From the NCBI GenBank assembly GCA_003251635.1, contig QKEW01000008.1:110860-174859 (forward strand): a stretch of 64,000 bases of DNA, in the 5' to 3' direction. Each line of letters opens with the position of its first letter. Within the stretch, counting starts at the first letter, position 1. The position numbers and the translations under genes were made by a program. Below the pieces are notes generated by a model, which worked only from the letters and a program-made list of their open reading frames with translations, was not told where the DNA came from and did not search any database. Below are positions 27,745 to 62,166 of this stretch, one piece after another. The DNA is from a bacterium (GTDB lineage Bacteria; Patescibacteriota; Minisyncoccia; Moranbacterales; GWC2-37-73).

Positions 27745-30700
27745 ATGGTTAAGGTTGATAAAAATAATTCAAGCGGTTTTGCTCAAAGCGACGATACTGA
27801 CAAATTGCTCAGAAAAATGCGCGATGAATCTGAGGAGCAACAAGCGGCTAGAATTGCTGATGAAAACAAACTTACTTATATAGATTTGAATATTTTTCCG
27901 GTCAGCATTGAAGATGTGCGAACAGTTTCTTTTGAAGATTCAAAAAAATATCAGATAACTGTTTTTCAAAAAACCGGAAGAGAGGTTCATGTGGCTTTGA
28001 TTGATCCGAAAAATAAAGAAACTTTGGATTTTATCGAGTCGCTTAAAAATGACAACGGTTGGAACATGCACATCTACGTGATTTCCTTGTCTTCTTTGAA
28101 GAAAATCTGGAAGCGCTACGAAGAAGCTCCTTTCATGGCCAGCTTGGAGAAAATGCAAATTTCTTTGACGGGTAGTGATTTGGAAAAATTCGAACAAGAC
28201 TTTGGCGGTCTTTTGGAACTTAAGAAAAAAATTCGGGACATTCCAACTACTCAGGTAGTGACGATCATTATGGCTGGAGCGGTTAAAATGAAAGCCAGTG
28301 ACGTTCATTTTGAACCGCAGAAAGAACAGGTGCGTTTACGTTTTCGTATCGACGGTGTTTTGCAAGAAATTGGAGATTTGCCGCCGGATATTTATCGATT
28401 CATTCTTTCGCGCATCAAGATGATGGGCAAGATGAAAATCAACGTGCGCGATATGGCTCAGGACGGACATTTTTCGATTGATTTGGAAAATGGCGGATTT
28501 AATGTGCGGGTCAACACTATCCCGGGAAATCATGGCGAATCTATTGTGATGCGTCTTTTGAATCAATCGGACATCATGCTTTCAGTTGAAGATTTGGGGC
28601 TTCGCGGTTTGGCCTATGAGCAACTTCAAAAACAAATTGAGCAACCCAACGGAATGATTCTAACTACCGGTCCAACTGGCAGCGGAAAGACTACCACGCT
28701 TTATGCGATTATCAACAAGCTCAATACGCCAGATATTAAGATCATTACGATTGAAGATCCGATCGAATATGAGGTTAAGGGTATTTCCCAAACTCAAATT
28801 GAAAAAGACCGTAATTATACTTTTGCCGAGGGCCTTAGGGCGATCGTGCGTCAAGATCCGGATGTGATTTTGGTGGGTGAAATTCGTGATGAGGAAACTT
28901 CGGACATTTCAGTCAACGCGGCTTTGACTGGTCACTTGGTGCTTTCAACTTTGCATACCAATAACGCGCCGGCTTCAATTCCGCGTTTTATTGAATTGGG
29001 GGTTAAGCCGAATTTGATCGCGCCTTCAGTCAATGCTTTTATTGCCCAACGTTTAGTCCGAAAACTTTGTGAACATTGCAAAGAGGCCTACACGCCGGCT
29101 CAAGAAACAATTTCTTCAATTAAGAAAATTCTTTCAATCATTTCACCCAAAGCCAAAGTTGAAATTCCTAAAAATATCGAAAAATTGTATCGCCCAGTTG
29201 GTTGTCCGAAATGTCATAATCTGGGCTATAAGGGTCGAATTGGAATTTTTGAAGTTTTGACCATCAATGAAGAAATTGAAAAATTGATTTTGGAAATGGG
29301 CGGCGAAAGGGAAATTGCTCAAGCGGCTATGGAAGATGGAATGATAACGATGGCTCAAGACGGAATTCTCAAGGCGGTTAGCGGGGAAACTTCCATGGAA
29401 GAAGTTTGGCGGGCGACTGGGCAAAGTGAGTTTTTAGAAACGATCTATGAAAAATTGATGGAGCAATCCTTGTCGCGATCAATCACGGTTTCTGAAAATG
29501 ATTTGCAGAAAGTTTCGCAAAATCTGGATTCGATTGAAAAATTGGGAGAGCTGATCAAGGGGGCTAACCAAAAGGCTATTGCTAAATATATTTTTGCCAG
29601 CAGTTTGCTTTTGGGAGTGGGTGACATTCATATTGAGCCCGAAGAAAAAGATGTGAAGATTCGTTATCGAATTGATGGGATTTTACAAACCATCGCAACT
29701 ATTCCTTTGGATGAATATCCAAGTTTTTTGGGTGAAATAAAATTTCTAAGCGGATTTAAGGCGGACGTGCGAGACGGAGTTAAGGATAGCCGTTTTGCAA
29801 TTGAGCTGGAAAAACCTTTTGAAAAATTGACAGAAACCAAAGTGGATGTGCGCGTCTCGATTATTTTGGGTGGTTTTGGAGAAACGGTGGTTATGCGACT
29901 CCTTAGCAAATCAGCAGTGGCTTTGGATTTGACCAAGTTGGGAATTCGACAGCAAACACTGGATAAGATCATGCATGTCATCAAAAAACCCAATGGTATT
30001 TTTCTTAACACCGGACCGACCGGTAGTGGAAAGACTACCACGCTGTATAGTATTTTGGGAATTTTGAATCAGCCGGAAGTTAAGATCATAACAGTGGAAG
30101 ATCCGATTGAATATCAAATGGAAGGTGTTTTGCAAACTCAAGTTAATGAGGAAGCCAATTACACTTTTTCCACGGCCCTTAGATCGCTTTTGCGTCAAAA
30201 TCCGGACATCATGATGATTGGAGAAATTCGCGACAATGAAACGGCTAATATCGCAGTTCAAGCCGCTTTGACTGGTCATGCTATCTTTTCGACGCTGCAC
30301 ACTAATGATGCGGCCGCTTCGATTCATCGTTTGCTTAATATGGAAGTGGAAAGCGATGATTTAGCCACGGCTATCAATGCTCTAATGGCGCAAAGATTGG
30401 GACGCAAGCTTTGTGAGTGCAAAGAAAAAGTCATGCCGACTGCCGAGGAGAAAAAACACATTGAAGAAGTTTTAGCGACGATTTCTCAAAAGGCTGGAGT
30501 GGAGATTCCAAAAGTGGAATTTATCTATAAGCCCAAGGGCTGTGAAAAATGTAATCACATTGGGTATAGGGGTCGTACAACCATCACGGAAGTTTTGGTG
30601 GTCGATCGGGATGTGCAGGAATTGATTTCGACTCATGCGCTTTCTTCGCAAATCAAAGACAAGGCGGTCGAAAACGGCATGATCACCATGCTCCAAGACG

Positions 30701-31823: not shown

Positions 31824-31892
31824 AGCCCGCTCCTTTCATTGAAAAATCGCTGGTTGAGTTACATGGAAAGGTAATTAACAAAAAAACGATTT

Positions 31893-32339
31893 TTACTGAT
31901 ATGCAGGCAAATCCCAGAAATCTGGATCCGGAGGTTCGTCTTTCTTGGGTTCGGTAGGAAATGAACACCGGAATCCATTTTGCCTAAATTTTATCAATAG
32001 GTCATCCTGTTCCTGCTCTATGGGAATGAATCCTAATTTATTCCAGGAACCAATTTTCATATTATTCTTGTTGTTTGAATAATAGAAAACCTGCCCGTTT
32101 GACTCTACCATAATGAATGATAGGTCGCAGAGAACCAGGATGGCCCCTGAATCCTGGGTGCCCCGCCATTTTTCAAAAGCTGGAGCTGGCGGGAAGCAAT
32201 TTTCATCAAGCCAAATTTCAATTTCCTTTAAAACCTCACAAGGAACCCTTAAGGGTTCCTCGTGTTGGTTCATGAACTGCCCAAAAACTGAAGTGGAACA
32301 CAAAACAATTGTAATTGTCAAAAAGCCTTTCTTGAGCAT
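31893..32339 (-). CDS. Small secreted Cys-containing protein, paralog family member 3 (true start at internal MLKKGF; track ORF is 5'-extended through a repeat)
   Basis: Signal peptide after internal Met with AGGAG SD. The upstream extension is a duplicated copy of the gene family 3' end, not coding. Confidence 0.55.
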   Translation of the reverse strand: MLKKGFLTITIVLCSTSVFGQFMNQHEEPLRVPCEVLKEIEIWLDENCFPPAPAFEKWRGTQDSGAILVLCDLSFIMVESNGQVFYYSNNKNNMKIGSWNKLGFIPIEQEQDDLLIKFRQNGFRCSFPTEPKKDEPPDPDFWDLPAYQ

Positions 32340-32403
32340 AGCCCCTCTTCTCCTTTTCGATAAAATCGCCTGTTTTAATTTAAAATAAAAAAAACGACTT
32401 CTA

Positions 32404-32550
32404 ATGATTTGCAGGCAAATCCCAGAAATTTGGATCCCCGGGGAAGCGTCAGTGTCGAGGAACAGCGCAGCCGAAACCACAGTGCCCGTGTCTTGGCAAA
32501 AAGACACCATTTGAGGACAAAAGATAGAAATCCCCAAACTGCCTGCAAAT
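32404..32550 (+). other. GC-rich about 147-bp element bounded by 13-bp inverted repeat TGATTTGCAGGCA/TGCCTGCAAATCA. Gene-3'-end remnant and/or candidate small structured RNA
   Basis: Terminal IR read directly. First 40 nt duplicates the 3' end of the gene at 31893. Internal hairpin GTGTCTT-GGCAAA-AAGACAC. Weak resemblance of GUCAGUGUCGAGGAACAGCGCAGCC to the SRP-RNA domain IV consensus. Confidence 0.2.
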
Positions 32551-32739
32551 CACTAAAAACCGTTTGATTTTTCTTTATTTAGTTGTGAACTTAACCACGA
32601 AGGTTCAGTCTAGCACAGCTTTATTTTTTTGTCAAGCGGTGTTATAATTGGTTACAAACCATTTGAGCTTATTTTTGGTTTACTAATCTTAGTACGTTTT
32701 TGGGTAGATTTTTATTTTAGATTAAAAAATATTTTTTCT

Positions 32740-33750
32740 ATGATTACCAGCAGTCAAGAAAATTCGGAGGATGTGGTTTTGGACAGCACTCTGCGGCCGC
32801 AAAAATTCGAGGAATATGTTGGCCAAGAGAAGGTTAAGGATAACCTGAGGGTTTTTATTGAGGCTGCCAAAAAAAGAGGAGATGTGATTGAACATGTGCT
32901 TCTCTATGGACCAGCCGGCCTTGGCAAAACCACTTTGGCTAATATCATTGCTAAAGAGACCGGAGTTAACATTCGGGTAACTTCCGGTCCAGCTATCGAA
33001 AGGGTTGGAGATTTGGGCTCAATCCTGACCAATCTTTCAGACGGAGATATTCTTTTCATTGACGAAATCCATCGTCTCAATAAAACCGTTGAAGAGGTGC
33101 TCTATCCGGCCATGGAGGACTACAAGTTGGATGTGATCATTGGCAAAGGCCCTTCGGCTCGAACTTTGCAATTGGATTTGCCTAAGTTCACTTTGATCGG
33201 GGCGACGACCCGTTTGGGTTCGCTTTCCAATCCGCTGCGAAGCCGCTTTGGCGCCATTCATCGTTTGGAGTTCTATACTCAAAATGAAATGGAAGAAATC
33301 ATTCGACGCAGCGGCAAGATTTTGCAGGTGCAAATGGATAGTGCCGGTTGTAGTCAAATTGCTCGTTGTTCGCGTCAAACACCACGGGTGGCCAATCGAA
33401 TTCTCAAAAGAGTGCGGGACTATTCCCAGATTTATGGAGACAATTTGATTGAAGAAAAAATTGCCAAAAAAGCTCTGGAAATGCTGGAGGTTGATCATTT
33501 TGGTTTGGAACCGACCGATCGTAATATCTTAATGACCATCATTGAAAAATTCGCTGGCGGACCGGTTGGGATTGGCACGATTGCGGCAGCCACTTCTGAG
33601 GAAGTTGAAACGATCGAAGATGTCTATGAGCCCTATCTGATTCAACTGGGATTTTTAGCTCGCACTCCACGTGGACGAGTGGTAACTGAAAATGCCTATC
33701 GACATTTGGGAAAAGATTTTCCGGTGGAAAAACAAAAAAATCTGCTATAA
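32740..33750 (+). CDS. ruvB: Holliday junction DNA helicase RuvB (start at internal MITSSQ; track ORF 5'-extended)
   Basis: AAA+ motifs [20 protein letters not shown], RuvB C-terminal winged helix. Confidence 0.9.
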
Positions 33751-36270: not shown

Positions 36271-36389
36271 AACCTCCCCTCGGTCCCCTCCGCATCCCCC
36301 TCCCTTTCAAGGAGAGGGTCTGGGTGAGGTAAATTCTTGGCAAAAAGAAAATCCCCCAACAGGCGAGGCTGTCGGGGGGATAGTTTTTG
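36271..36389 (+). repeat. Island-boundary repeat copy 1: short R1 (5' box + hairpin-2 + SD region) followed by R2 terminator hairpin
   Basis: AACCTCCCCTCGGTCCCCTCC...CCCTTTCAAGGAGAGGGTCTGGGTGAGGTAAA + TTCTTGGCAAAAAGAAAATCCCCCAACAGGCGAGGCTGTCGGGGGGATAG. Near-identical to 42033-42195 apart from the R1 middle. Confidence 0.75.
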
Positions 36390-36393
36390 GGAA

Positions 36394-36606
36394 TCACTTG
36401 TAGATATAGGGAAGAATTTTTTCCCCATATCCGCGTTTTATTTGCTCAAGGCGGATGGATTTCAGTCCGTCTTTGCCGATCCAGTAGAGCTTTTTCAATC
36501 CAGTGTCAGTCATTTCCAGAAGGTCTTCAATTTTCTCAAACCCAAGCCGTTTAAGAGCGTTGATGGTTCTGTTATTCAAATTTCCCCAGGCATCTTTTTC
36601 GTTCAT
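36394..36606 (-). CDS. Stand-alone RNA polymerase alpha-CTD-like helix-hairpin-helix protein (70 aa)
   Basis: NRTINALKRLGFEKIEDLLEMTDTGLKKLYWIGKDGLKSI resembles the RpoA C-terminal HhH domain. GGAGG SD 7 nt upstream. Confidence 0.5.
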   Translation of the reverse strand: MNEKDAWGNLNNRTINALKRLGFEKIEDLLEMTDTGLKKLYWIGKDGLKSIRLEQIKRGYGEKILPYIYK

Positions 36607-36642
36607 GACAACCTCCTCGAGCTAGCAGTGATTTCGGAATTA

Positions 36643-37413
36643 TCAAAGTTCAGTTATTTTTTTTGCATCTATGATTGTGAATTTTATTTCGCACTTAACA
36701 TTTAGATTGTTTTTGAAATAATCTTCAAGCTGTTTTTGCAAAATATTCTCAAGTTCAGTTTTTGAAATGAAGTGACTGCTTGGAATTTTTCCAAGTCTTT
36801 TTTGAATTATTTTATCAATCTTATTTTTCCATGGCTGAGAAGGATCATAGAACCATCTTTCTTTCATGAAATAGGATTTTAGAACCTGAGTTAGTGAATT
36901 TAACAAATTTGGAAGTTCCTCATCCAGAATGGATATGTGAAATTTATAGATGAGATTCCAATTTTTATTTATCAATTTATGATTAAAATTTTTGTCAATT
37001 TGAATTATTTTTTCATGATGGTATTTGAGAAAATAAATATTTTTTTCTGGCAAGTATGTTATTTTTTTGGAATTGTAGATAAAAACTCGGGCATTATGGT
37101 CAAAATTTGTCTTGATAAGGTCGATGGGAATTATTAGTAAGAACAAAAATAAAAATATCAAACAAGTCACTGTCCATTTATCCTTCTTTATTTTCACTTT
37201 TGGGAAAATGCGATCCATTACCAATAAAAAAAGCAAAACTGGCAAAAGAATCAAAATTGTCGTCAAAAAAATTGGCCACTGAGTTTCTATGGCTAATAAG
37301 GAGGAAATAAAATGACCTGTTTCTATAAATGTCTTTACGGGTATCAAAATCAGAGAGAAAAAAAATAGAAAAAACACTGCAATGGTACTAAAAATTGAAC
37401 GGATTATAGTCAT
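36643..37413 (-). CDS. Membrane protein, hypothetical (N-terminal TM helices)
   Basis: ORF with GGAGG SD. Leader about 35 nt conserved with that of 36394..36606. Confidence 0.45.
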   Translation of the reverse strand: MTIIRSIFSTIAVFFLFFFSLILIPVKTFIETGHFISSLLAIETQWPIFLTTILILLPVLLFLLVMDRIFPKVKIKKDKWTVTCLIFLFLFLLIIPIDLIKTNFDHNARVFIYNSKKITYLPEKNIYFLKYHHEKIIQIDKNFNHKLINKNWNLIYKFHISILDEELPNLLNSLTQVLKSYFMKERWFYDPSQPWKNKIDKIIQKRLGKIPSSHFISKTELENILQKQLEDYFKNNLNVKCEIKFTIIDAKKITEL

Positions 37414-37428
37414 GACAACCTCCCTTGG

Positions 37429-37836
37429 CTAGCAGTGATTTCGGAATTTTTCGTAGTGGGGATATTTTTCAAAGAAAATTTTCTTTTCTTTTTTGAACAC
37501 AAAATATCTTCCCAAAAATAAAAACAAAATTAACAAAATTGCTAACAAATTACATGTGGCAATAAAATTGATGCTGTATTTATTAAAAAGTAAAAAAATA
37601 AACAGTGTTCCTGCTGCTGCATAGTAATAAAACACTATTCGTGCAAATTTTTTTAACCGTTTTTCACTTCCTGCTTCACTCCAGTCTTTCCAAAATTTCT
37701 CGCGTTCTTTATTGCAAAATTTTCTGTCAATCAGTTCCATTTGTCCACATTCGGGACATTTTTCCCAGAGGGCGGTTCCGCAATGTCCGCAAAAATTCGG
37801 ACCGGCGGTTTCTTTTTGGCACTTTGAGCAAATCAT
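37429..37836 (-). CDS. Zinc-ribbon membrane protein (CxxC x4 N-terminal, two C-terminal TM helices)
   Basis: CSKC...CGHC...CPEC...C motif then hydrophobic helices; related leader/SD. Confidence 0.5.
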   Translation of the reverse strand: MICSKCQKETAGPNFCGHCGTALWEKCPECGQMELIDRKFCNKEREKFWKDWSEAGSEKRLKKFARIVFYYYAAAGTLFIFLLFNKYSINFIATCNLLAILLILFLFLGRYFVFKKEKKIFFEKYPHYEKFRNHC

Positions 37837-38191
37837 GGCAATCTCCCTTGGTTAGTCTAGCCATATTCTTTTTATTTTGATTAAAACCGTGGCGCAGATG
37901 GAAGAATAAACTAAAATGAGAATTCCTATTGCAATTATTGTTTGCCAGTCCCAATTAAATTCCAGGGACGTTTCAAAAATAGAAATGACAAAAAGAAAAT
38001 AACTTTCTTTGATTATGCTTAAACTTATGGCAATCAATAATCCTGGCAGCGCGAAGGTGGTGATTTTAATCCAGGGTTTTAATTCCTTAGTATCTTTAAT
38101 GAGGCATGATGGTATTTGCTAACAGCCAACATTATAAATAATAAAATAAAACCGGCAGTTGCAAGCAGGGTCGACATAGTAAAGCAAAAAA

Positions 38192-38467
38192 TTAACTCCA
38201 TGATTCTTCTCCTTTCAAATTTCTTTGATTAATTTTTTTATTCAGATAAACTGTTAGCCAAACAAAAAATACATCGATAGAAGTTCTGATTACTAGTGAA
38301 ATCGTTGGGTGTGATATTAGATAGGGTTGGATCAAAAAACTTATTTGCAAGCCATTGGTTATAAGGAAAATACTGAATAATATTCGCATATAACGCCTGC
38401 CTGGATCCCAAAAACTTCCCAGACCCAAAAAAGCAGTAACAGCCATGTTTAAAAGTAATTCTCCCAT
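38192..38467 (-). CDS. Small membrane protein, hypothetical
   Basis: ORF with three hydrophobic segments; weak. Confidence 0.3.
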   Translation of the reverse strand: MGELLLNMAVTAFLGLGSFWDPGRRYMRILFSIFLITNGLQISFLIQPYLISHPTISLVIRTSIDVFFVWLTVYLNKKINQRNLKGEESWS

Positions 38468-38668
38468 GTGACACCTCCCGTGGTTAAATTGTCAAAGAAA
38501 ATGTTTCTTGATCTACAAGGAAACAGGTAATTTTCCCTAAAAATTAACAAATTGTCAACGAAAAATTGTAAAATATGGTCTAAAATCAGCCAAAATAAGG
38601 AAAAATAATAAAATTTCATCAATAATATTGACAAAAATGGGGAATTGGAGTATGATGATTTTATAATT

Positions 38669-38773
38669 AACCTCCCCTCGGTCCCCTCCTTGAAAAGGAG
38701 GGGAAGTGACGTGAGTTGAAACTAAAACGCGATTACCCCCTCCTTTTCAATGAGAGAGTCTGGGTGAGGTAAA
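38669..38773 (+). repeat. R1 full-length repeat copy (5' box, hairpin CCCCTCC-TTGAAAA-GGAGGGG, middle, hairpin CCCCCTCC-TTTTCAA-TGAGAGAG, GGGTGAGGTAAA) immediately upstream of the TrmB gene start
   Basis: About 95% identical to 42033-42137; supplies the SD-like GGTGAGG 8 nt before the ATG at 38779. Confidence 0.75.
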
Positions 38774-38778
38774 AAAAT

Positions 38779-39534
38779 ATGGACCAAGATTTAATCAAAC
38801 TTTTGGAAAATTCCGGTTTTACTCAAAAAGAAGCGCAAGTTTATTTGGCGCTTTTAGAGCTTTCCGAAGGAACCGTCAGTCAAATCGCCAAAACAACCAA
38901 GCTTAAACGGCCGATCATCTACGTGGTTTTGGAAGGTTTGATAAAAAGAGGTTTTGCCAATGAGCTGCCGGAAAGAAAAGTCAATGTCTATCAACCAATC
39001 AATCCAACTGTGATTTTGGGACAACTCAAAATGTCGGCCAAAAACTTTGCCCAAATGCTGCCAATCCTGCAAACCTTGGGAAATGACAGAAAAAAGAAAC
39101 CCAAGATTAGGTTTTATGACAACAAGGAAGATATTTTGAAAATTTGGGACGGCGAGATGAACATTGCCCAGGAAGCTTTTTTCATTTCTTCCTATCAAAA
39201 AATCGAAGAACACTTTCCGGGAAAAATTGCCGAGTGGATTGACAAGGCTCAAAAAGGTTTGACGGGCAAAGGCTTTCGTCATTTGATAGCTGACGATCCT
39301 TTGGAACTCGAGTTGGCACCCAAATTTTTGAAGGTTGATCAAAATGTCAGGATCTTATCCGAGCTGCGCGGTTTGAAAATGGATTTTACGATCTATGACA
39401 ACAAATTGGCCATAACTTCTTTGGAAGAAAACCCCTTTATTGTAGTGATTGAGTCGCCGGAACTGGTCGCTTCCATGCAGATGATTTTTGAATTGGCTTG
39501 GGAGAAGGGGAAGCGCGTAGCGCGTAGTGCTTAA
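38779..39534 (+). CDS. TrmB-family transcriptional regulator
   Basis: N-terminal TrmB wHTH (SGFTQKEAQVYLALLELSEGTVSQIAKTTKLKRPIIYVVLEGL). Confidence 0.8.
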   Translation: MDQDLIKLLENSGFTQKEAQVYLALLELSEGTVSQIAKTTKLKRPIIYVVLEGLIKRGFANELPERKVNVYQPINPTVILGQLKMSAKNFAQMLPILQTLGNDRKKKPKIRFYDNKEDILKIWDGEMNIAQEAFFISSYQKIEEHFPGKIAEWIDKAQKGLTGKGFRHLIADDPLELELAPKFLKVDQNVRILSELRGLKMDFTIYDNKLAITSLEENPFIVVIESPELVASMQMIFELAWEKGKRVARSA

Positions 39535-39618
39535 CGTATAACGTATAACGTAGAACGTAAAACGTGGAACCTGTAACCTGAAGCGTGGAGCGCGAAACGT
39601 GAAATATTGAACGTGAAG
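39511..39618 (+). repeat. Degenerate heptanucleotide tandem repeat ([A/G/T]A[A/G]CGT[A/G] x about 15) spanning the stop codon and 3' flank of the TrmB gene
   Basis: 7-nt periodicity read directly: aagcgcg tagcgcg tagtgct taacgta taacgta taacgta gaacgta aaacgtg gaacctg taacctg aagcgtg gagcgcg aaacgtg ... Confidence 0.6.
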
Positions 39619-39629
39619 TTAAAAAGAAA

Positions 39630-39670
39630 ATCCCCCAACAGGCGAGGCTGTCGGGGGGATAGTATTTTTT
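39630..39670 (+). terminator. R2 repeat copy = intrinsic terminator (ATCCCCCAACA-GGCGAGGC-TGTCGGGGGGAT + T-run)
   Basis: 11-bp stem with one mismatch, 8-nt loop, followed by TAGTATTTTTT. Confidence 0.65.
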
Positions 39671-39998
39671 AGTTTTGACTTAGGAAGGCAAAAACCGTCT
39701 TCCCGCTGACTTCATTTTCAAGCCAGCCATTAACTGAGCAGTAATCAGTTGCATCAGTGTCAGCTATTGCACGCCTTAGCTTGTACTGGCCGTCAGCGCC
39801 GAGGCACGGATTGTCAGCCAGAACGCAGCTTTCAAATTGACTTTTTGAAAGTTGCTCGCGCATTTTTTCAAAGGAGACTATCCTTGCCGGCCAATAATTC
39901 CTTGCATAACCGGCAGCTAACACGGCTGCAATGCAAAACCACTCATCTTCTTTTCCGCCACACAACTCAGCGGCTGTCTCGAATATAATTTCTCTCAT
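39669..39998 (-). CDS. Hypothetical protein, locally GC-rich (109 aa, 7 Cys)
   Basis: ORF in a conspicuously GC-richer patch than the surrounding genome; no recognisable family. Confidence 0.4.
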   Translation of the reverse strand: MREIIFETAAELCGGKEDEWFCIAAVLAAGYARNYWPARIVSFEKMREQLSKSQFESCVLADNPCLGADGQYKLRRAIADTDATDYCSVNGWLENEVSGKTVFAFLSQN

Positions 39999-40073
39999 TT
40001 TAAACCCCTTTCTTTTTTATTGGCTAAGTTGTTGAAAACTTTTTTTCTGTTTTTTGAGTTATACTATTAGGAA

Positions 40074-40631
40074 TTACATTACAAGCTTTTTGCTAAGGAG
40101 TCTTTTGAGGATATCCCCCCAGTTTTTACCTTGAAAAGGAATGACACCATTCTGGCAATATCTGCATGTATTACCCTGGGCATCTACACCTGTTCCTTCG
40201 CAGTCGTAGCAATGGATTGGTTTTCTTTTAATATCTATTTTCTGCACTTTAGATGTAAAAAGAATTTTTGTATCATCAATATTAAATACATACTCATAAA
40301 AATCAGGAGGGTTGCATTGTAAGCAATATTCTGGAAAATTCCATGGATCTTCACGTATAACAGCTATGAACTTAACTTTCATTTTTATGCCAATAAGGGC
40401 GAGACGCCACCCCAATAAATCCCTGGCAGGATCAGGAAGCCCACCTTCATATGAAATTTCCCACCCAAAGCCGGGTTTGATATGCAGGTTTGTTAGCAGA
40501 ACTTCAAATCCTTTTTTGTATAAAGGATTCACTGCTTCAAAATATGAGGAGACTATCGAGACATTATGGCCTTTGAGTGTATCAAGGGCTGATTGTGTTT
40601 TTTCGGGATGTTCAACGATAAGAATTTTCAC
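40074..40631 (-). CDS. Hypothetical protein with C-terminal DnaJ-type CxxCxGxG zinc-finger-like motif
   Basis: CYDCEGTGVDAQGNTCRYCQNG near C-terminus; N-terminal MKILIVEHPEKT resembles a small alpha/beta domain. Confidence 0.4.
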   Translation of the reverse strand: MKILIVEHPEKTQSALDTLKGHNVSIVSSYFEAVNPLYKKGFEVLLTNLHIKPGFGWEISYEGGLPDPARDLLGWRLALIGIKMKVKFIAVIREDPWNFPEYCLQCNPPDFYEYVFNIDDTKILFTSKVQKIDIKRKPIHCYDCEGTGVDAQGNTCRYCQNGVIPFQGKNWGDILKRLLSKKLVM

Positions 40632-40770
40632 AGCGTCCTCCTTTAATATTTTTAAGTTACTGTGTTACCTGGGCAAATTCTCAGCGTAACAGGCGATTAT
40701 ACCTTATTTTTACCAATACGTCAATAATTATGTCAATATATTAAATATAATCAAAATAATACAGAAAATA

Positions 40771-41586
40771 TTGACTAAAACAAGCCAAATATGTTATAAT
40801 AAGAATGTTGTCAGAATTGATAACAAAATTATGAATTTACTCCAAAAAGACCTAAAATCAATTGGATTGAGCGAAAACGAAGCAGTGGCCTATTTGGCCT
40901 TGCTTGAGTTAGGTGAGGCTTCTGTCGGAGAAATCGCTAAAAAAGCCGAGCTTAAAAGGCCAACGACTTATTTGATCATGGAATCTCTGAAGGAAAAGGC
41001 CTTGATAAGTATGGTAAAGCGAAAGAAAAAAACTTTATTTTTGGCTGAAGATCCCAGAAAAATCAATGAAATTTTGGAGGAGCGCAAACGAAAAATAGAT
41101 AAAATAATGCCACAACTTCTTTCAATTACTAATTCTCTGGAGGTTAAACCTAAGATTCAATATTTTGAAGGAGAAGAAGGGATTAAGAATGTTTATCGCG
41201 ATACTTTGAGATATCCAAATCAAGAAATGCTGGCCTTTTTTTCCGACTCGTATGCCAGGGGTTTTGAAGAGGATTTTTTTGAGAATTATTATTTTCAAAA
41301 AAGAGTTGAGAAAAAAATTTGGGTCCGAGCCATTTTGCCAAATCAAAAAATGACTAGAAGTTTAATGGTTCGCGACAGGGAGCATTTAAGGAAAACAAAA
41401 TTGGTCAGCAGTGAACTTTATCGGATTGAAGTGGAGGTTAATATATATGGAAAAAATCGAATTGGAATCATTTCTTTTGAAGAAAAATTTGCTTTGATCG
41501 TGGAAAGTCAAAAAATATCTCAGAGCTTGAAAAGTATTTTTGAATTGCTTTGGAGTTTGTTGCCGGAACATAAGCATAACGCATAA
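40771..41586 (+). CDS. TrmB-family transcriptional regulator (paralog of 38779..39534)
   Basis: N-terminal TrmB wHTH (LSENEAVAYLALLELGEASVGEIAKKAELKRPTTYLIMESL). Gene 3' end runs into a heptamer-repeat tract (41574-41615). Confidence 0.8.
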   Translation: MTKTSQICYNKNVVRIDNKIMNLLQKDLKSIGLSENEAVAYLALLELGEASVGEIAKKAELKRPTTYLIMESLKEKALISMVKRKKKTLFLAEDPRKINEILEERKRKIDKIMPQLLSITNSLEVKPKIQYFEGEEGIKNVYRDTLRYPNQEMLAFFSDSYARGFEEDFFENYYFQKRVEKKIWVRAILPNQKMTRSLMVRDREHLRKTKLVSSELYRIEVEVNIYGKNRIGIISFEEKFALIVESQKISQSLKSIFELLWSLLPEHKHNA

Positions 41587-41621
41587 CGTGAAGCGTGGAG
41601 CGTGAAATGTGAAAAATATCT

Positions 41622-41663
41622 TCCCCCCCCCTCCTTTTCAAGGAGGGGGTCTGGGTGAGGTAA
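41622..41663 (+). repeat. Partial R1 repeat (hairpin-2 CCCCCCCTCC-TTTTCAA-GGAGGGGG + GGGTGAGGTAAA) supplying the SD for the DUF559 gene
   Basis: Matches 3' portion of R1; ATG of the next gene 8 nt downstream. Confidence 0.7.
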
Positions 41664-41667
41664 AAAA

Positions 41668-42021
41668 ATGCAAAAAATTCACAACAGAAAAGAAAAACTA
41701 GAAAGCAGAAAATTATTGCGTAAAAATGCGACACCGCAAGAGATAATTCTTTGGTCTCGATTAAAAAGTAAGCAACTTGGCTGCAAGTTCAGAAGACAAC
41801 ATTCAATCGGTAGATATATTGTCGATTTTTATTGCCCAGAACATAAATTGATTATTGAAATTGATGGATCCCAACACAAATCTGAAGAAGCTTGTAAATA
41901 CGACAAAGAAAGAACCGAATATTTAGAAAAATTAGGCTTACAGGTCATAAGGTTTTGGAACAATGAGATTAATAATAATTTAGAAGGAACTATCCTGAAG
42001 ATTTTGGGATATTTAAAATGA
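41668..42021 (+). CDS. DUF559 endonuclease-domain protein (Vsr/PD-(D/E)xK-like)
   Basis: Typical DUF559 sequence (ATPQEIILWSRLKSKQLGCKFRRQHSIGRYIVDFYCPEHKLIIEIDGSQH). Confidence 0.75.
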   Translation: MQKIHNRKEKLESRKLLRKNATPQEIILWSRLKSKQLGCKFRRQHSIGRYIVDFYCPEHKLIIEIDGSQHKSEEACKYDKERTEYLEKLGLQVIRFWNNEINNNLEGTILKILGYLK

Positions 42022-42032
42022 TCTTAATCCAT

Positions 42033-42195
42033 AACCTCCCCTCGGTCCCCTCCTTGAAAAGGAGGGGAAGCGATGTGAGTTGAAGCTAAAACGCGATTGC
42101 CCCCCCTCCTTTTCAAGGAGATGGTCTGGGTGAGGTAAATTCTTGGCAAAAAGAAAATCCCCCAACAGGCGAGGCTGTTGGGGGGGATTTTATTG
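42033..42195 (+). repeat. Island-boundary repeat copy 5: full R1 followed by R2 terminator hairpin
   Basis: Direct repeat of 38669-38773 (R1) and of 36334-36389 / 39620-39670 (R2). Same orientation as all other copies. Confidence 0.75.
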
Positions 42196-46168: not shown

Positions 46169-47102
46169 AATAGGCATGAAAAAAAGAGTACTAATACTTT
46201 TCAACAAGAAAGATTCTGAAAAATCTATAGGATCCAAACAATATGAAGATCTTTATTTGTATGCATCTGAAAAAGGTATTGAATTTTGTCGGGCATCTAT
46301 TGATGACTATGATTTGAAGAATAATTTTTTTAGAGAAGTTCAATTTTTTGATGGGGCGAAGTGGTTTATTGAAAAAAATGTCAAGCCCGATTTGGTTTTG
46401 GACAAATCACCATATGAAATCGGCGAAGAAAGAAAAAAAATCAGAGAATATATTTCGGCTAAATACGTTTTTGTTAACGATTTGAAAATTAGCAGAGTAT
46501 TAAGTGACAAATGGGAAACCTATAAAGAATTCGAAAATTTTTCGCCCAAAACAATTTTGATAGAAAATGATCATGATTTTGAAAATATTAATTTATTAAA
46601 AACTGAAGAAATAGTCCTAAAACCTAGGAGTGGGTCTGGCGGCAAAGATGTTAAAATAATCAAAAAAATAGATTTTTCTGGGAATAAATTACAATTTCCA
46701 TTTATAGCGCAAGAAATGGTGAATGCGGAAAAAGGAATAGCGGGTTTGGTTGATGGCCCGCATGATTTGCGAATTATTTTTAAAAACAGTACTCCTTTCT
46801 ATGCTTTTCTGAGAATACCTCCAAAGGGTAAATTAATAGCTAATGTTTCAAAAGGCGGAAAAGTCAAAGTTGTTCCGATAAACAAAATTCCAGAAAATAT
46901 TTTGGATCAAGCACGATTCATATCAGAAAAAATGAGTGAATTTCAAAGCAAATTTTTTTCTATAGATTTTATTGTGGATAATGAACAAAAACCTTGGATG
47001 CTTGAAATGAATTCTCGTCCCGGACTTATTTTGGAAGACGAGGAGTTGGAATATAAAGAATATTTTTACGATAATCTTTTGGATTTTTTGCTAAGCATAT
47101 AA
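46155..47102 (+). CDS. ATP-grasp ligase, paralog A
   Basis: LKPRSGSGGKDV, DLRIIF...ANVSKGGK, WMLEMNSRPGL motifs; ends FFYDNLLDFL like the next gene. Confidence 0.6.
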   Translation: MSINKIGMKKRVLILFNKKDSEKSIGSKQYEDLYLYASEKGIEFCRASIDDYDLKNNFFREVQFFDGAKWFIEKNVKPDLVLDKSPYEIGEERKKIREYISAKYVFVNDLKISRVLSDKWETYKEFENFSPKTILIENDHDFENINLLKTEEIVLKPRSGSGGKDVKIIKKIDFSGNKLQFPFIAQEMVNAEKGIAGLVDGPHDLRIIFKNSTPFYAFLRIPPKGKLIANVSKGGKVKVVPINKIPENILDQARFISEKMSEFQSKFFSIDFIVDNEQKPWMLEMNSRPGLILEDEELEYKEYFYDNLLDFLLSI

Positions 47103-52147: not shown

Positions 52148-52720
52148 ATGATAGCTAAAATCAAAGGCAAAGTTGATCTGGTGGGAGATTCTTTTTTAGT
52201 GGTGATGGTAGGCGATTTGGGCTACAAAGTTTTTGTGGGTGCTTATACTTTAGGCAAAGTTGCTGGTCAAGGCGAAGTTGAATTTTTTGTTCATACTCAC
52301 GTTCGTGAGGATGTTTTGGCTCTTTATGGTTTTTTAACTTTGGATGAATTGGAGATGTTTGAGCTTTTGATTTCAATTTCCGGAATTGGTCCCAAAGCGG
52401 CTTTGGGAATTTTGGCAATTGCTGATCCGGCAGCTATTCAAACCGCAGTGGCCAGCGGGGATGATTCAATTTTGACTCGGGTTTCCGGAGTTGGCAAAAA
52501 GACGGCTGGTCGGGTCATTTTGGAATTGAAAAATAAAATTAAAAATCTTTCAACTGTTCACAAAATTGAAAACTCGGCAGACACCGATTCCTTGGAAGCT
52601 TTGGTGGCAATGGGTTATTCAATTGCTCAGGCTCGCGATGCTTTAAAAGATGTTGATAAAGACATTAAGGATGTAGGCGAGAGAGTTAAAACTGCTTTAA
52701 AAAAATTAGGAAATAAATAA
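52148..52720 (+). CDS. ruvA: Holliday junction DNA helicase RuvA
   Basis: MIAKIKGKV...VGDLGYKVFV N-terminal OB domain, HhH motifs (ISGIGPKAAL, VSGVGKKTAGR). Confidence 0.85.
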   Translation: MIAKIKGKVDLVGDSFLVVMVGDLGYKVFVGAYTLGKVAGQGEVEFFVHTHVREDVLALYGFLTLDELEMFELLISISGIGPKAALGILAIADPAAIQTAVASGDDSILTRVSGVGKKTAGRVILELKNKIKNLSTVHKIENSADTDSLEALVAMGYSIAQARDALKDVDKDIKDVGERVKTALKKLGNK

Positions 52721-54278: not shown

Positions 54279-55445
54279 TTGTTTATGGAAAAGAGCAGTC
54301 AACTTACATTGGAAAACTTTTTGGAAACTTTTAGGAACGAGGCTTTTTTGCAATCAGAGGATTGGCGCAAATTTCAGGAGGCAGAAGGCCATAAAACGTT
54401 TCATTTCGAGAATGTTCTGAGATCTGAAAATCAGAAGATTCTCTTTTGTGTTTGGGCTAATATGATTGAACATAAATTGTCGATTGTCGGCAAATACTTC
54501 TATAGTCCCCGCGGGCCAATCATTCAAAGAGGCACGAATAATGGTTCAATTGAAGTGGCAGATTTTGAAAAAAGTCTGAATAGTTTGATTCAGGTGGCCA
54601 AAGAAAATCGTGCCGGTTGGATCCGTTTTGATGTGCAAAGCGAAGATGATCTGGTTTTGATCAAAAAAACTGCTCAGCGGATTTTTGCCAGCAAAACAAG
54701 TTGTCTAAAAAAATCACCTCATGACATGCAGCCAGCTCAAATTCTGGTGATTGATATTGACGAATCGCAGGAGAAATTGTTGGGTCAAATGAAAAGCAAG
54801 ACCCGATATAATATTCGCTTAGCTCAAAAGAAGGGAGTGGAGATATGCTCAGACAATGGAACCGAAGACGAAAGAAAAAAATATTTGGAAGTCTTTTTGA
54901 ATTTATCCAGCCAAACAGCTGAGAGAAAAAAAATTTCTTTCCATGAGGAAAATCACTATCGAAAAATGTTGGAAGTTTTTCCCAAAGATGTTTTTAAAAT
55001 TTATGTGGCTAAGTATGAAAATGAAATCATTGCAGCTAATCTGATGATTTTTTTTGGAGATACGGCCATCTATTTGCATGGAGCTTCAGCTGATAAATAT
55101 CGGGAAGTGATGGCGCCATTTTTTTTGCAATGGCAACAAATTCTGGATGCCAAGAAAAAAGGTTGCCGCTTTTATGATTTTGGCGGGGTGAAGATTGATA
55201 AGATTGAGTCCAAAAAAACAAATGATTTTCACGTTCCACACTCCACGTTTTGCGCTCAGGATTCTAGGCAGGGAATAACACGTTTTAAGGTCGGGTTTGC
55301 GCCTGAAGTTCAGCCGATTGTTTTTTCAGGAAGCTATGATGTAGTACTTAATTTTAAAAAATATCATATATATCGTTTTTTGGAGAAAATCAGAAGTTGG
55401 CAAACTAAGATAAAAAAGCTACATAAAAATTTATGCAAAAGATAA
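54279..55445 (+). CDS. FemAB-family peptidoglycan interpeptide-bridge aminoacyltransferase-like protein
   Basis: FemAB-like core (IYVAKYENEIIAANLMIFFGDTAIYLHGASADKYREVMAPFFLQWQ). Confidence 0.7.
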   Translation: MFMEKSSQLTLENFLETFRNEAFLQSEDWRKFQEAEGHKTFHFENVLRSENQKILFCVWANMIEHKLSIVGKYFYSPRGPIIQRGTNNGSIEVADFEKSLNSLIQVAKENRAGWIRFDVQSEDDLVLIKKTAQRIFASKTSCLKKSPHDMQPAQILVIDIDESQEKLLGQMKSKTRYNIRLAQKKGVEICSDNGTEDERKKYLEVFLNLSSQTAERKKISFHEENHYRKMLEVFPKDVFKIYVAKYENEIIAANLMIFFGDTAIYLHGASADKYREVMAPFFLQWQQILDAKKKGCRFYDFGGVKIDKIESKKTNDFHVPHSTFCAQDSRQGITRFKVGFAPEVQPIVFSGSYDVVLNFKKYHIYRFLEKIRSWQTKIKKLHKNLCKR

Positions 55446-59582: not shown

Positions 59583-60047
59583 TTGAATTATAAACTTATG
59601 TGGCCGGCGAAAAAAATCAAAAACGATGGGAAATATGAATGGACGGATCATTCGAAATTCAAGATGCAGTTTTATGGTCTCAGTCCCCAACGGGTGACGC
59701 GGGTGATCAAAAGTCCGCTGCGAGTGGAAAATGGAATTGTGGAAAACACAGTGGCCGTCATGCAGCCAGTCAGCACTAAAAGAGGCGAGGATGGTAAGAA
59801 GACTTGGTCGCAGGAGATTTGGGTAATGTATCAGGTAAAAACGCAAAACGCGAAACGCAAAACGCGAAACGTTATGAATCAAAAGCAAAATAAAAATGAC
59901 AAGCTAGTGGAGTTGCGACAGCAGATTAGTGGGAGTTTGAACAAGAAAATCGTTATTATTTCAGCCTGGCGCTATCCTGGCAAAACCGAAGAGGGCGAGG
60001 GTTTGCCGGCCGAAATTTTGCAGGAAATCGAAAGTGCGCTAAACTGA
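59583..60047 (+). CDS. Hypothetical protein containing an in-frame heptamer-repeat-encoded basic linker (KTQNAKRKTRN)
   Basis: ORF; internal tract AAAACGC AAAACGC GAAACGC AAAACGC GAAACGT at 59837-59872. Confidence 0.35.
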   Translation: MNYKLMWPAKKIKNDGKYEWTDHSKFKMQFYGLSPQRVTRVIKSPLRVENGIVENTVAVMQPVSTKRGEDGKKTWSQEIWVMYQVKTQNAKRKTRNVMNQKQNKNDKLVELRQQISGSLNKKIVIISAWRYPGKTEEGEGLPAEILQEIESALN

Positions 60048-60571: not shown

Positions 60572-61996
60572 ATGGACAAAAAAACCAAAATTGTGGCGAC
60601 AATTGGATTGGCTAGTGAATCGGAAGAAATCTTGCGTCAGATGATTGAAAACGGGATGAATGTGGCGCGATTGAATTTTTCGCATGGAACACACGAATGG
60701 CATGGCAATGTGATTGGAATCATCCGAAAGTTGGCAGCTGAGATGGGAGTCAATGTCGGAATTTTGGCAGATTTGCAAGGGCCGCGCATTCGGACCTTAA
60801 CCGAGAAAGAATTTGAAATTGCCAAGGGAGAAATTGTTGAAGTGGGTGATGTTTCTGGATCTTCAGAAGCTAAATCAGAGAGCAAATTTTTTCAACTGGA
60901 TGTGTCCGGCATTGTTCAGGACATTGAAATTGGTCATGAAATTTTGGTGGAGGATGGCTTGATGAAATTGGCGGTTAGGGAAAAAAAGAACGGAATTTTG
61001 AGTTGCGAAGTTGTTGATGGCGGAATAATCAAAAATCACAAGGGAGTCAACATTCCGGATGCTCAGCTGAAAATCAGTCCGATCACGGAAAAAGATGAAA
61101 AAGATCTGGTCTTTTCTTTGGATCAAGATGTCGATTTTGTGGCCATGTCTTTTGTGAGCACATCTGAGGATATTGAAAATTTGCGATCAAAAATTAAAAA
61201 TCATTTGGGACGAGAAAATGATTTACCGCAAATTGTGGCCAAGATTGAAAGAAAAGAAGCGATCAAAAACTTAGATGAAGTTATCGAAGCAACTGACGCG
61301 GTGATGGTGGCGCGCGGCGATTTGGGCATTGAAATTGAAACATCCAAAGTGGCGGTCCTGCAAAAAGAAATTATTCACAAAAGTTTGGAACGAGTTAAGC
61401 CAGTGATTGTGGCCACTCAAATGCTCAACTCTATGATTGAAAATCCACGGCCAACCAGAGCGGAGGTTAGTGATGTTTCCAATGCGGTTATTGATCATGC
61501 CGACGCGGTGATGCTCAGTGGCGAATCAGCTAGTGGTAAATATCCAGTCGAGAGCGTTCGAATCATGGCGGATATTATCAGAAACACCGAAGTTTCGCCA
61601 TTTGATGATGTGATAGGCAAACTAAAAATCAAGGACGAGCAGAATTATAATGAAATCGTTTCGGGAGCTTATGAATTGGCCAAGTCTTCCGGAGTCAAAG
61701 CAATTTTACTTGGTAGCTATTCCGGATTTACTGCGCGGCTCATTTCACATTTTCGACCAGCTCAACCAATTTTGACAGTGACTAGTAATCCAAAAACCTT
61801 CAATCAACTGGCTTTGGTTTGGGGGGTTAGGGCGCGATTTTTTGAAAAAGGCGGCGTTTTTCGTGAGGATATTGATTGGTTGGTTGATCAGTCCAAGCAA
61901 GCAGGAGATTTGCAAATTGATGACAAAACAGTTTTGATTATGGGTCGAATGGAAAATGAAAAAATTCGTTTGATTGGTTTGAAGGAGATTGAGTAG
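60572..61996 (+). CDS. pyk: Pyruvate kinase
   Basis: KIVATIGLAS...ENGMNVARLNFSHG, MVARGDLGIEI motifs. Confidence 0.9.
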   Translation: MDKKTKIVATIGLASESEEILRQMIENGMNVARLNFSHGTHEWHGNVIGIIRKLAAEMGVNVGILADLQGPRIRTLTEKEFEIAKGEIVEVGDVSGSSEAKSESKFFQLDVSGIVQDIEIGHEILVEDGLMKLAVREKKNGILSCEVVDGGIIKNHKGVNIPDAQLKISPITEKDEKDLVFSLDQDVDFVAMSFVSTSEDIENLRSKIKNHLGRENDLPQIVAKIERKEAIKNLDEVIEATDAVMVARGDLGIEIETSKVAVLQKEIIHKSLERVKPVIVATQMLNSMIENPRPTRAEVSDVSNAVIDHADAVMLSGESASGKYPVESVRIMADIIRNTEVSPFDDVIGKLKIKDEQNYNEIVSGAYELAKSSGVKAILLGSYSGFTARLISHFRPAQPILTVTSNPKTFNQLALVWGVRARFFEKGGVFREDIDWLVDQSKQAGDLQIDDKTVLIMGRMENEKIRLIGLKEIE

Positions 61997-62166
61997 ACGT
62001 GGAACGTGGAACGCGGAGCCTGCTTCTGGCTTGCGGTTTTGGTTAAAATCGGGTAGGATAGCTTCTAGCTGTTAGTTGTTGGGCGTTCAGCTAATTAGTT
62101 TTTGTTATTTGTTTTGGGTTGTAAGTTTTTAGTCATTAGTCGTGGGTTGTTAGTTATAAGTTATTT

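Follow-up and report, generated by a model that had tools for sequence, protein, structure and literature searches.

R1, a repeat beside a DUF559 endonuclease gene in a Patescibacteriota genome, as a probable inverted doublet of BoxC/PIT/TMECO-type triplex motifs

The 64,000-nt stretch of contig QKEW01000008.1 analysed here (positions 110,860 to 174,859; assembly GCA_003251635.1, Patescibacteriota), hereafter the window, carries a 6-kb mosaic of repeats between ruvB (32629-33750 in window coordinates) and yebC-ruvC (42790 onward). Within this mosaic lie two genes for TrmB-family regulators (TrmB1 and TrmB2), a gene for a small Vsr-like DUF559 endonuclease, and R1, a structured repeat whose copy ahead of TrmB1 was read in an initial annotation as a mobile 5′ leader that donates a ribosome-binding site. 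Here we report that R1 is probably an inverted doublet of BoxC / PIT / ‘TM’-type triplex-motif repeats, a DNA-level repeat tied to a cassette that contains the DUF559 gene. While the anatomy given in the initial annotation is largely right, its interpretation needs changing.

Repeat finding and pattern searches identified four copies of R1, all intergenic, all on the plus strand and all inside 36271-42139, with no further copies found elsewhere in the window (Table 1); copy D had been missing from the first inventory. Together they make up seven half-units, including two full doublets (B and D), and the 16-mer GTCTGGGTGAGGTAAA occurs four times in the window against 0.00 expected. Copy B has the order originally described, namely 5′ box, hairpin 1, 32-nt core, hairpin 2 and tail; hairpin 2 of this copy is degenerate (CCCCCTCC / TGAGAGAG, 5/8 pairs). 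The core recurs in D with four mismatches and in no other window copy. The 5′ box and the tail are complementary, and canonical hairpin 2, when reverse-complemented, gives hairpin 1 exactly, so that R1 is an inverted doublet and, as a whole, one imperfect palindrome with imperfect inverted ends of ~36 nt. At minimum energy it folds into one long, imperfect hairpin, pairing hairpin 1 to hairpin 2 and the tail to the 5′ box (-49 kcal/mol, z = -6.0).

Copies B and D are 95% identical within unrelated flanks, and their identity ends exactly at TAACC...GGTAAA. In copy A only the first arm of hairpin 1 is kept, and GCAT and an entire hairpin 2 come after it, which does not fit the simple crossover between near-identical hairpins by which the short form was at first explained. 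The flanks of A look recombinant, the left being common with B and the right with D. These mixed flanks and the B/D boundaries indicate copying and recombination of a discrete unit, and support R1 as a structured, copied module with sharp boundaries.

Table 1. Positions of R1 copies, their half-units and associated features in the window.
Feature	Position	Strand	Remarks
R1 copy A	36271-36333	+	Short form; covariance model E = 9e-7
R1 copy B	38669-38773	+	Full form, the copy first annotated; directly precedes TrmB1; covariance model of other-phyla loci, E = 3e-14 / 7e-13
R1 copy C	41625-41664	+	Single half-unit, hairpin 2 and tail only; covariance model E = 4e-6
R1 copy D	42032-42139	+	Full doublet; covariance model E = 6e-15
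Right half-unit of A	36296-36331	+	GGAGAGGG-TCT-GGGTGAGG; 7/9 pairs, 9/9 triads
Left half-unit of B	38669-38704	-	Bottom strand reads CCCCTCCTT-TTC-AAGGAGGGG-ACCGA-GGGGAGGTT; 9/9 Watson-Crick pairs, 9/9 allowed triads
Right half-unit of B	38736-38773	+	CCCCCTCC-TTTTCAA-TGAGAGAG-TCT-GGGTGAGGTAAA; stem degenerate, 5/8 pairs
Left half of D	42033-42068	-	Bottom strand; right arm of DUF559 cassette; 9/9 pairs, 9/9 triads
Right half of D	42102-42137	+	Followed by terminator repeat R2, no gene; 7/9 pairs, 8/9 triads
TrmB1	38779-39534	+	TrmB-family regulator gene (PF01978); follows copy B
DUF559 gene	41668-42021	+	YcjD-family, Vsr-like PD-(D/E)XK endonuclease, 117 aa; Pfam PF04480, E = 1e-36
Promoter-like site TTGACA-17-TATGAT	38628-38656	+	Ends 12 nt before copy B; consensus match only
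R2	36342-36388, 39621-39667, 42148-42194		Bidirectional terminator-like hairpin repeat; in two cases directly after R1 (A, D)

Each R1 half-unit comprises a pyrimidine stem CCCCTCCTT, a 3-nt loop, a purine stem AAGGAGGGG, a linker of 3-5 nt and a G-rich block mirroring the purine stem, which is the 9/3/9/3/9 design of the BoxC / PIT / TMECO motifs (PMC4666352). BoxC is an E. coli repeat found in the 1990s, to which Maher's group gave the new name PIT element in 2000 and which has been called TMECO since 2015 (Bergler 1992; Hoyne and Maher 2000; Holder et al. 2015; PMC4666352). The TMECO pattern was counted 3610 times across 262 proteobacterial genomes, and triplex motifs of other G/C-rich kinds have been reported from cyanobacteria and further groups (PMC4666352). 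The sequence first taken for a Shine-Dalgarno (SD) site, GGGTGAGGT, is the third block of this design, and E. coli TMECO has the same GGGTGAGG; the ‘5′ box’ is the third block of the left half-unit of B. The outer box mirrors the purine arm of the adjacent hairpin, beyond being the complement of its partner box: the purine stem AAGGAGGGG reversed is GGGGAGGAA, and the box reads GGGGTGGTT in relatives and GGGGAGGTT and GGGTGAGGTA in the window. At every position G lies opposite G, or T or A opposite A, giving G.G-C, A.A-T and T.A-T triads, the pattern by which a purine-motif intrastrand triplex is defined.

A scan of the window for 9/9/9 motifs returned R1 half-units only, while 30 block-shuffles of the window together gave one match. 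Copy C scored 9/9 pairs and 8/9 triads; the right half-unit of B was not recovered, and the right halves of A and D, with 7/9 pairs, were allowed in our scan but lie beyond the ITxF limit of one mismatch. The loop is 3 nt in B-left, C and D-left. Complementary pyrimidine/purine stems of 8-9 nt with a short loop, a mirror G-rich block after a short linker with at most one triad mismatch (9/9 or 8/9 triads) and, within the window, an intergenic, multi-copy, inverted-doublet arrangement all place R1, as far as sequence can tell, in the triplex-motif class. By eye, no window copy fits the strict TMECO consensus CCCTCNCCC-N3-6-GGGNGAGGG-N3-GGGNGAGGG; since the stems of R1 differ from those of TMECO, each block is about one base away from the strict pattern, as in the closest case, the right half of A (CCCCCTCCC / AGGAGAGGG / GGGTGAGGT). 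Copy A has GGAGAGGG-TCT-GGGTGAGG where the E. coli TMECO core is GGAGAGGG-TTA-GGGTGAGG. R1 is thereby assigned to the same class as TMECO and is not TMECO in the strict sense. The triplex itself, demonstrated by others on E. coli oligonucleotides, is predicted for the window sequences.

The exact hairpin 21-mer CCCCTCCTTTTCAAGGAGGGG occurs at 120 or more genome loci in many phyla, against ~0.3 expected by our own estimate. The matches listed come from Proteobacteria, Bacteroidota, Acidobacteriota, Patescibacteria, Ignavibacteria/Kapaibacteria, Armatimonadota, Nitrospinota and Verrucomicrobiota, cultured isolates included, and in some genomes numerous copies are spread over different contigs. 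With a covariance model trained on 12 doublets from other phyla and free of window sequence, all four R1 copies were recovered (Table 1), anything else in the window scoring no better than 0.035. The relatives follow a common plan: AACCACCCC is separated by either a few bases or an extra GC hairpin from the hairpin, after which come a core of 10-60 nt, the hairpin reversed and GGGGTGGTT. Among the loci listed, 25 doublets have their boxes outside and 31 have them inside, round a spacer of 15-40 nt. We therefore show that modules of the same predicted design, often with the identical 21-mer, are distributed across phyla. A narrower pattern of hairpin 2 plus tail had no matches in the genome collection, and its sole metagenome match was a purine-rich chance match. 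The 21-mer is also present on two viral contigs (L123 and L124, IMG/VR), on both of which inverted doublets of these triplex modules are complete and lack a DUF559 gene, so that phages are a possible vehicle of spread between phyla.

The position and make-up of these relatives bear on the level at which the repeat acts. Among the loci listed, most hairpins are intergenic: they lie inside open reading frames (ORFs) of ≥120 aa in 36% of cases, against 87% for random positions, and tandem (37) and convergent (19) gene pairs are preferred to divergent ones (4); in other genomes the family is found chiefly at 3′ ends or between convergent genes, in either orientation. GGGGTGG follows 115 of 142 exact hairpins within 70 nt downstream and precedes one. 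The third block is kept in solo half-units, 42 of 106 lacking a complementary CCACCCC in the 200 nt to each side, and it is thus not kept by Watson-Crick pairing with a partner box. Purine-motif triplexes cannot form in RNA (PMC4666352), and the conserved three-way mirror constraint therefore points to DNA.

The window DUF559 protein matches PDB 3hrl (E = 3e-21), an uncharacterised Neisseria protein that is its nearest solved structure, and NCBIfam PRK09767. Its gene is bracketed by copy C, whose third block GGGTGAGGTA lies 7 nt before the ATG, and by the left half of D, as D begins 10 nt past the stop codon; copy C, the gene and the left half of D together read as a complete cassette. Two samples place this arrangement in a wider context. 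Starting from hairpins, the ~120 loci listed contain eight DUF559 ORFs, six of them adjacent (within 125 nt of a hairpin), and several have, like the window, the gene between two repeat copies. In the reverse direction, with the protein as the starting point, homologues of 60-74% identity from lineages of the Candidate Phyla Radiation (CPR) were traced to seven independent loci of 32.5 kb in all (L125, L132, L142, L143, L145, L148 and L151). All 17 triplex-motif matches in these loci lie within 105 nt of the DUF559 gene, with none elsewhere in the 32.5 kb. The upstream motifs are on the plus strand; their third block precedes the ATG by 4-11 nt in six of seven loci and by ~55 nt in L143. Downstream, seven of nine motifs are on the minus strand and have their third block no more than ~30 nt from the stop codon; in L132 and in L151 one further motif, on the plus strand, lies just past the stop.

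Between these loci the stems vary (CTCTCTCC/GGAGAGAG/GAGAGAGG and TTTCCCCT/AGGGGAAA/AAAGGGGA), and purine stem and third block co-vary as mirror images. RNAalifold on the upstream hairpins of eight DUF559 cassettes found pairing kept, with compensatory changes in 4/8 pairs. Counting the seven homologue loci, E. coli ycjD and the window, we show that predicted inverted triplex modules bracket DUF559 in every DUF559 locus examined. No other gene was found bracketed by both arms, bar two ordinary-sized genes that probably lie between separate elements. In a Bacteroidetes genome (L064), the long spacers of two doublets encode N-terminal (E = 2e-6) and C-terminal (E = 8e-7) fragments of DUF559, which suggests that gene-less doublets can arise by internal deletion of the cassette. 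A PDDEXK_3 gene (L137) was considered as another selfish gene with the same arms and was rejected, having upstream heptamer repeats in place of the modules.

In E. coli K-12 (NC_000913.3, 1351204-1351830; L153), the stop codon of the DUF559 gene ycjD lies inside a truncated inverted BoxC motif, a duplicated 17-aa YcjD tail follows the gene, and no. 9 of the published TMECO table (1351204-1351239) lies 170 nt downstream of it. BoxC was presumably first noticed at this same fabI (envM) locus. The leader of ycjD has its own 16-bp hairpin, CACCTCATTCTGACAA...TTGTCAGAATGAGGTG, whose 3′ arm is an extended SD sequence (GAGGTGAT) and whose 5′ arm mimics the 16S rRNA tail. The K-12 arrangement of the fabI-ycjD-sapF region is present in 3346 of 5426 complete E. 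coli genomes; in the remaining 38%, similarity ends ~35 nt before the BoxC motif, and fabI is instead followed by a TetR/RND efflux island in MCJCHV-1, the one diverging strain examined. The strains lacking ycjD were considered as a natural empty site, and were set aside as showing a larger replacement with no clean empty site.

That R1 is primarily a cis-regulatory RNA, a 5′ leader that provides a ribosome-binding site with translation controlled by anti-SD/SD pairing, was the view of the initial annotation, and we now consider it unlikely. A check for nearby promoter motifs found a TTGACA-17-TATGAT site matching 11 of 12 consensus positions just upstream of copy B. This promoter-like site would make R1-B the 5′ untranslated region of TrmB1, folding over the SD-like tail, and the strong predicted fold buries GGTGAGG. 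ATGs follow the tail in two copies, at 9 nt for TrmB1 (38779) and 7 nt for DUF559 (41668) rather than the 8 nt first given for both. Homologous blocks precede the DUF559 start in relatives, and their hairpins covary as described above; CPR variants of the third block read GAGG(T). A general rule of start codons at SD spacing after the hairpin is obscured in high-GC genomes, where the counts are swamped by spurious GTG ORFs that begin inside GGGGTGG; in CPR hairpin loci, real ATGs lie 6-25 nt after the hairpin.

The donated ribosome-binding site nevertheless does not extend to copies A and D, which are followed by the terminator repeat and no gene, so that the tail precedes a start codon in only two of four copies. 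An SD-like GGAG/GAGG/AGGA-type motif occurs within 18 nt upstream of a plausible ATG in 5 of 43 window ORFs of ≥180 aa, TrmB1 among them (the DUF559 gene, below this cut-off, has the same motif); the source organism seems to use SD sites rarely, an SD is thus no general requirement, and the third block is explained without it. The CCTCC next to GGAGG that had been taken as a sign of translational control owes its anti-SD/SD look to the homopyrimidine/homopurine design. A leader RNA also fits poorly with relatives found chiefly at 3′ ends and in convergent spacers on either strand, with the retention of the third block in solo half-units, and with a conserved mirror symmetry that has no role in an RNA hairpin; purine-motif triplexes do not form in RNA (PMC4666352). 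Searches of Rfam 15 with R1, at gathering and permissive thresholds, gave only chance-level miRNA- and snoRNA-like matches below threshold. Effects on expression are more plausible as secondary ones: the third block, reading GGGTGAGGT, would be able to act as an SD site 7-9 nt before the DUF559 and TrmB1 starts, and a doublet transcribed upstream of TrmB1 would mask that site in a long hairpin. R1 may therefore provide an incidental ribosome-binding site and masking hairpin without being a dedicated leader RNA.

The resemblance of R1 to a classical MITE (a miniature transposable element with inverted repeats) is one of form, with inverted repeats, small size and sharp boundaries, and many copies on different contigs in some genomes. 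On this reading R1 would be an internally deleted insertion sequence moved in trans by a transposase encoded elsewhere, with DUF559 as a mere passenger or neighbour; we regard it as quite improbable. No target-site duplication is readable at A, B or D and no autonomous transposase parent was found, there being no transposase or integrase among the genes of 36-42.6 kb or the 20 large ORFs between 15.9 and 52.7 kb, which are ordinary housekeeping genes. Holder et al. found no transposase near TMECO loci, and mobility genes were never found beside them in the 2015 survey (PMC4666352). Against a passenger role, DUF559 is also the sole gene found with both arms (apart from the two ordinary-sized genes), and fragments of it are left inside doublets.

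At the other extreme, R1 might not be mobile at all, being the product of local duplication and gene conversion in a recombination-prone island, with its likeness across phyla due to convergence on homopurine/homopyrimidine hairpins resembling SD sequences and the 16S tail. The clustering of all copies within 6 kb beside other local repeats (R2 and the heptamer arrays), the recombinant flanks of A and the resemblance of CCCCTCCTT to the 16S 3′ end speak in its favour. Convergence accounts neither for the third block and linker lengths that the relatives share, nor for one identical 21-mer in many phyla, nor for the constant bracketing of a single gene family, and we give this explanation very little credence.

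The reading we favour, of R1 as a DNA-level triplex-motif repeat tied to the DUF559 cassette, can be put as follows. The unit would be a cassette of a DUF559 gene and two inverted motifs, decaying into gene-less doublets such as R1, which would arise through internal deletion; B, A and the right half of D would be gene-less derivatives or relics of it. The element would act as DNA, as a repeat, selfish or structural, that is recognised as a folded single strand (hairpin/triplex), and would be propagated and rearranged together with the DUF559 nuclease, probably by it. Propagation could resemble that of repetitive extragenic palindromes (REPs) by REP-associated tyrosine transposases (RAYTs), or homing, with its cycle of invasion and decay. 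A related CPR genome (L143/L144, ENA metagenome contigs) has the order membrane protein (minus strand), DUF559, two triplex modules, a TrmB1 orthologue (61% identity) and YebC, so that R1-B is best read as the remnant of a cassette upstream of TrmB1. The ~3.2 kb lying between TrmB1 and yebC in the window, which hold two minus-strand genes, TrmB2, the DUF559 cassette and a minus-strand gene of 104 aa, are absent from the L143 region, which marks the ruvB-yebC interval as a variable island. TMECO loci are unusually rearranged between strains (PMC4666352). More tentatively, the standalone DUF559 protein (YcjD-family, Vsr-like) is a possible candidate for the missing partner enzyme of BoxC/PIT/triplex repeats, recognising their folded form and moving, copying or maintaining the motifs.

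Several points weigh against this reading. Most hairpin loci listed have no DUF559 gene within 8 kb, E. coli motifs outnumber DUF559 genes 23 to 1, and in two loci (L102 and L121) the gene occupies the other slot, between the hairpin sides. Beyond E. coli, the DUF559 sample is mostly from CPR, apart from the hairpin-ascertained loci. All four window copies lie within 6 kb and mobility was not observed; no strain with an empty site was found and no target-site duplication is readable. Endonuclease activity of DUF559 in this system is a prediction. The isolated TMECO strand forms a stable triplex in vitro, with none seen in vivo, and earlier work quoted in the same source found BoxC to be without promoter or terminator activity (PMC4666352). 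With SD-like motifs at 5 of 43 ORFs, the need for any SD role of the third block is doubtful as well.

TrmB1 and TrmB2 are only 28% identical while their flanking non-coding repeats are 88-98% identical, so that the repeats are not passive remains of a gene duplication. R2 (AAAAAGAAAATCCCCCAACAGGCGAGGCTGTCGGGGGGAT, copies 87-98% identical) lies in each case just downstream of a minus-strand gene, facing a plus-strand unit, and is an associated module, not part of R1; the copies behind R1-A and R1-D have an extra TTCTTGGC linker in common. Tandem heptamer arrays, (T/A/G)AACG(T/C)(A/G) in up to ~15 units, occupy 39512-39620 and 41569-41617, beginning within the stop codons of both TrmB genes or immediately behind them, and recur at the ends of further genes (55231-55249, 59840-59872 and 61996-62014); a similar ACGAA-type array precedes the PDDEXK_3 gene in L132/L137. 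Outside the mosaic, direct repeats of ~50 nt at 31880-31929 and 32388-32437 (also 29497-29529) are 90% identical and 508 nt apart. They overlap an unannotated 214-aa minus-strand ORF (31896-32537) that has no Pfam match and lies downstream of a gene for a 1006-aa double T2SSE/PilB-like ATPase.

The source genome is also contained in samples SRR7216773 and ERR2179511, and a 974-nt Logan contig with TrmB1 is broken inside R1 and R2. Contig k127_434971 (ENA ERZ926216; L152) has four loxP sites (ATAACTTCGTATAGCATACATTATACGAAGTTAT) joining pieces 98-100% identical to window positions 41696-42101, 46804-46925 and 52222-52500. We rejected it as a natural rearrangement, the loxP-joined pieces being a library or assembly chimera. 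A 99% identical DUF559 protein (P0001) sits on such a loxP-linked chimeric contig and is uninformative on mobility.

BoxC, PIT and TMECO elements have been catalogued for three decades, in thousands of copies and hundreds of genomes, and are tied to local genome instability, and have so far been assigned no function, origin or mobility enzyme; DUF559 is a very widespread family of unknown function with E. coli YcjD as a member. The class of repeat is known. What seems new is its constant association with DUF559 from E. coli to CPR, which we consider the promising part to follow up, the triplex-motif design itself reaching CPR bacteria and many other phyla. In the open-access literature searched, no paper turned up that connects BoxC, triplex, REP-like or MITE-like elements with DUF559 or ycjD, which is no proof of novelty. 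Two unknowns would become one testable hypothesis with E. coli as a ready model; if true, it would describe a cross-phylum nuclease-repeat system analogous to RAYT/REPIN and give an origin to repeats unexplained since 1992. For annotation, we suggest that the triplex-repeat family be excluded before SD-like or hairpin leader features are called dedicated riboregulators.

Comparison with known systems places R1 among several kinds of short structured repeat. Integron attC sites were considered and rejected: the ends (...ATTAAC / GTAAAAA in B, GTAAATT in D) do not fit RYYYAAC...GTTRRRY, and no IntI or other tyrosine recombinase was found in the ORFs scanned. Correia elements of Neisseria (CREE) share with R1 a size of ~100-150 bp, inverted ends and co-transcription with neighbours into long RNA hairpins able to alter expression. 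Their ends are unrelated in sequence to those of R1, however, and they have TA duplications and integration host factor (IHF) or promoter boxes, with neither a triplex-type mirror block nor a DUF559 link. Free-standing homing endonucleases offer another parallel, the Vsr/DUF559 clan containing a homing endonuclease family, EDxHD (I-Bth0305I) (PMC3424549). In both cases a small nuclease gene of this clan is inserted between host genes and has conserved sequence to its left and right, and degenerate gene remnants are left behind; the DUF559 cassette differs in being without an intron or intein context or a defined target site, and in having structured repeats, not a conserved host gene, as its flanks.

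REP/REPIN-RAYT systems resemble R1 and DUF559 in having short palindromic units, single or in inverted doublets that form long hairpins, in the great excess of units over one associated nuclease gene that is itself flanked by inverted units, and in a presumed action as folded single-stranded DNA. Membership in this group was rejected, as the flanked gene (PF04480, DUF559) is of the wrong enzyme class, a Vsr-like PD-(D/E)XK protein where RAYT is a Y1 (HUH) transposase, and R1 has no GTAG or CGTC tag, ending instead in TAACC...GGTAA. R1 units are also of the triplex type whereas REPs are simple hairpins, R1-type sequences are common across phyla whereas REPs are lineage-specific, and the R1/DUF559 system is known here from sequence alone.

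The closest likeness is to BoxC/PIT/TMECO, in whose description a DUF559 or ycjD link goes unmentioned (PMC4666352). Strict TMECO hosts are proteobacterial while R1 is from a low-GC CPR-type bacterium, and the stems are CCCTCNCCC/GGGNGAGGG in TMECO and CCCCTCCTT/AAGGAGGGG in R1. Both have a 9-nt pyrimidine stem, a loop of 3-6 nt, a 9-nt purine stem, a linker of ~3 nt and a mirror G-rich block, the third block GGGTGAGG being the same and, in copy A, also the purine stem GGAGAGGG. Both are intergenic and multi-copy, with frequent inverted doublets, which are found at 5 of 18 E. coli TMECO loci (PMC4666352); four of these pairs have their third blocks inward, and TMECO nos. 17+18 have them outward like R1. 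Partial deletions that retain a hairpin, as in copy A, are common to both.

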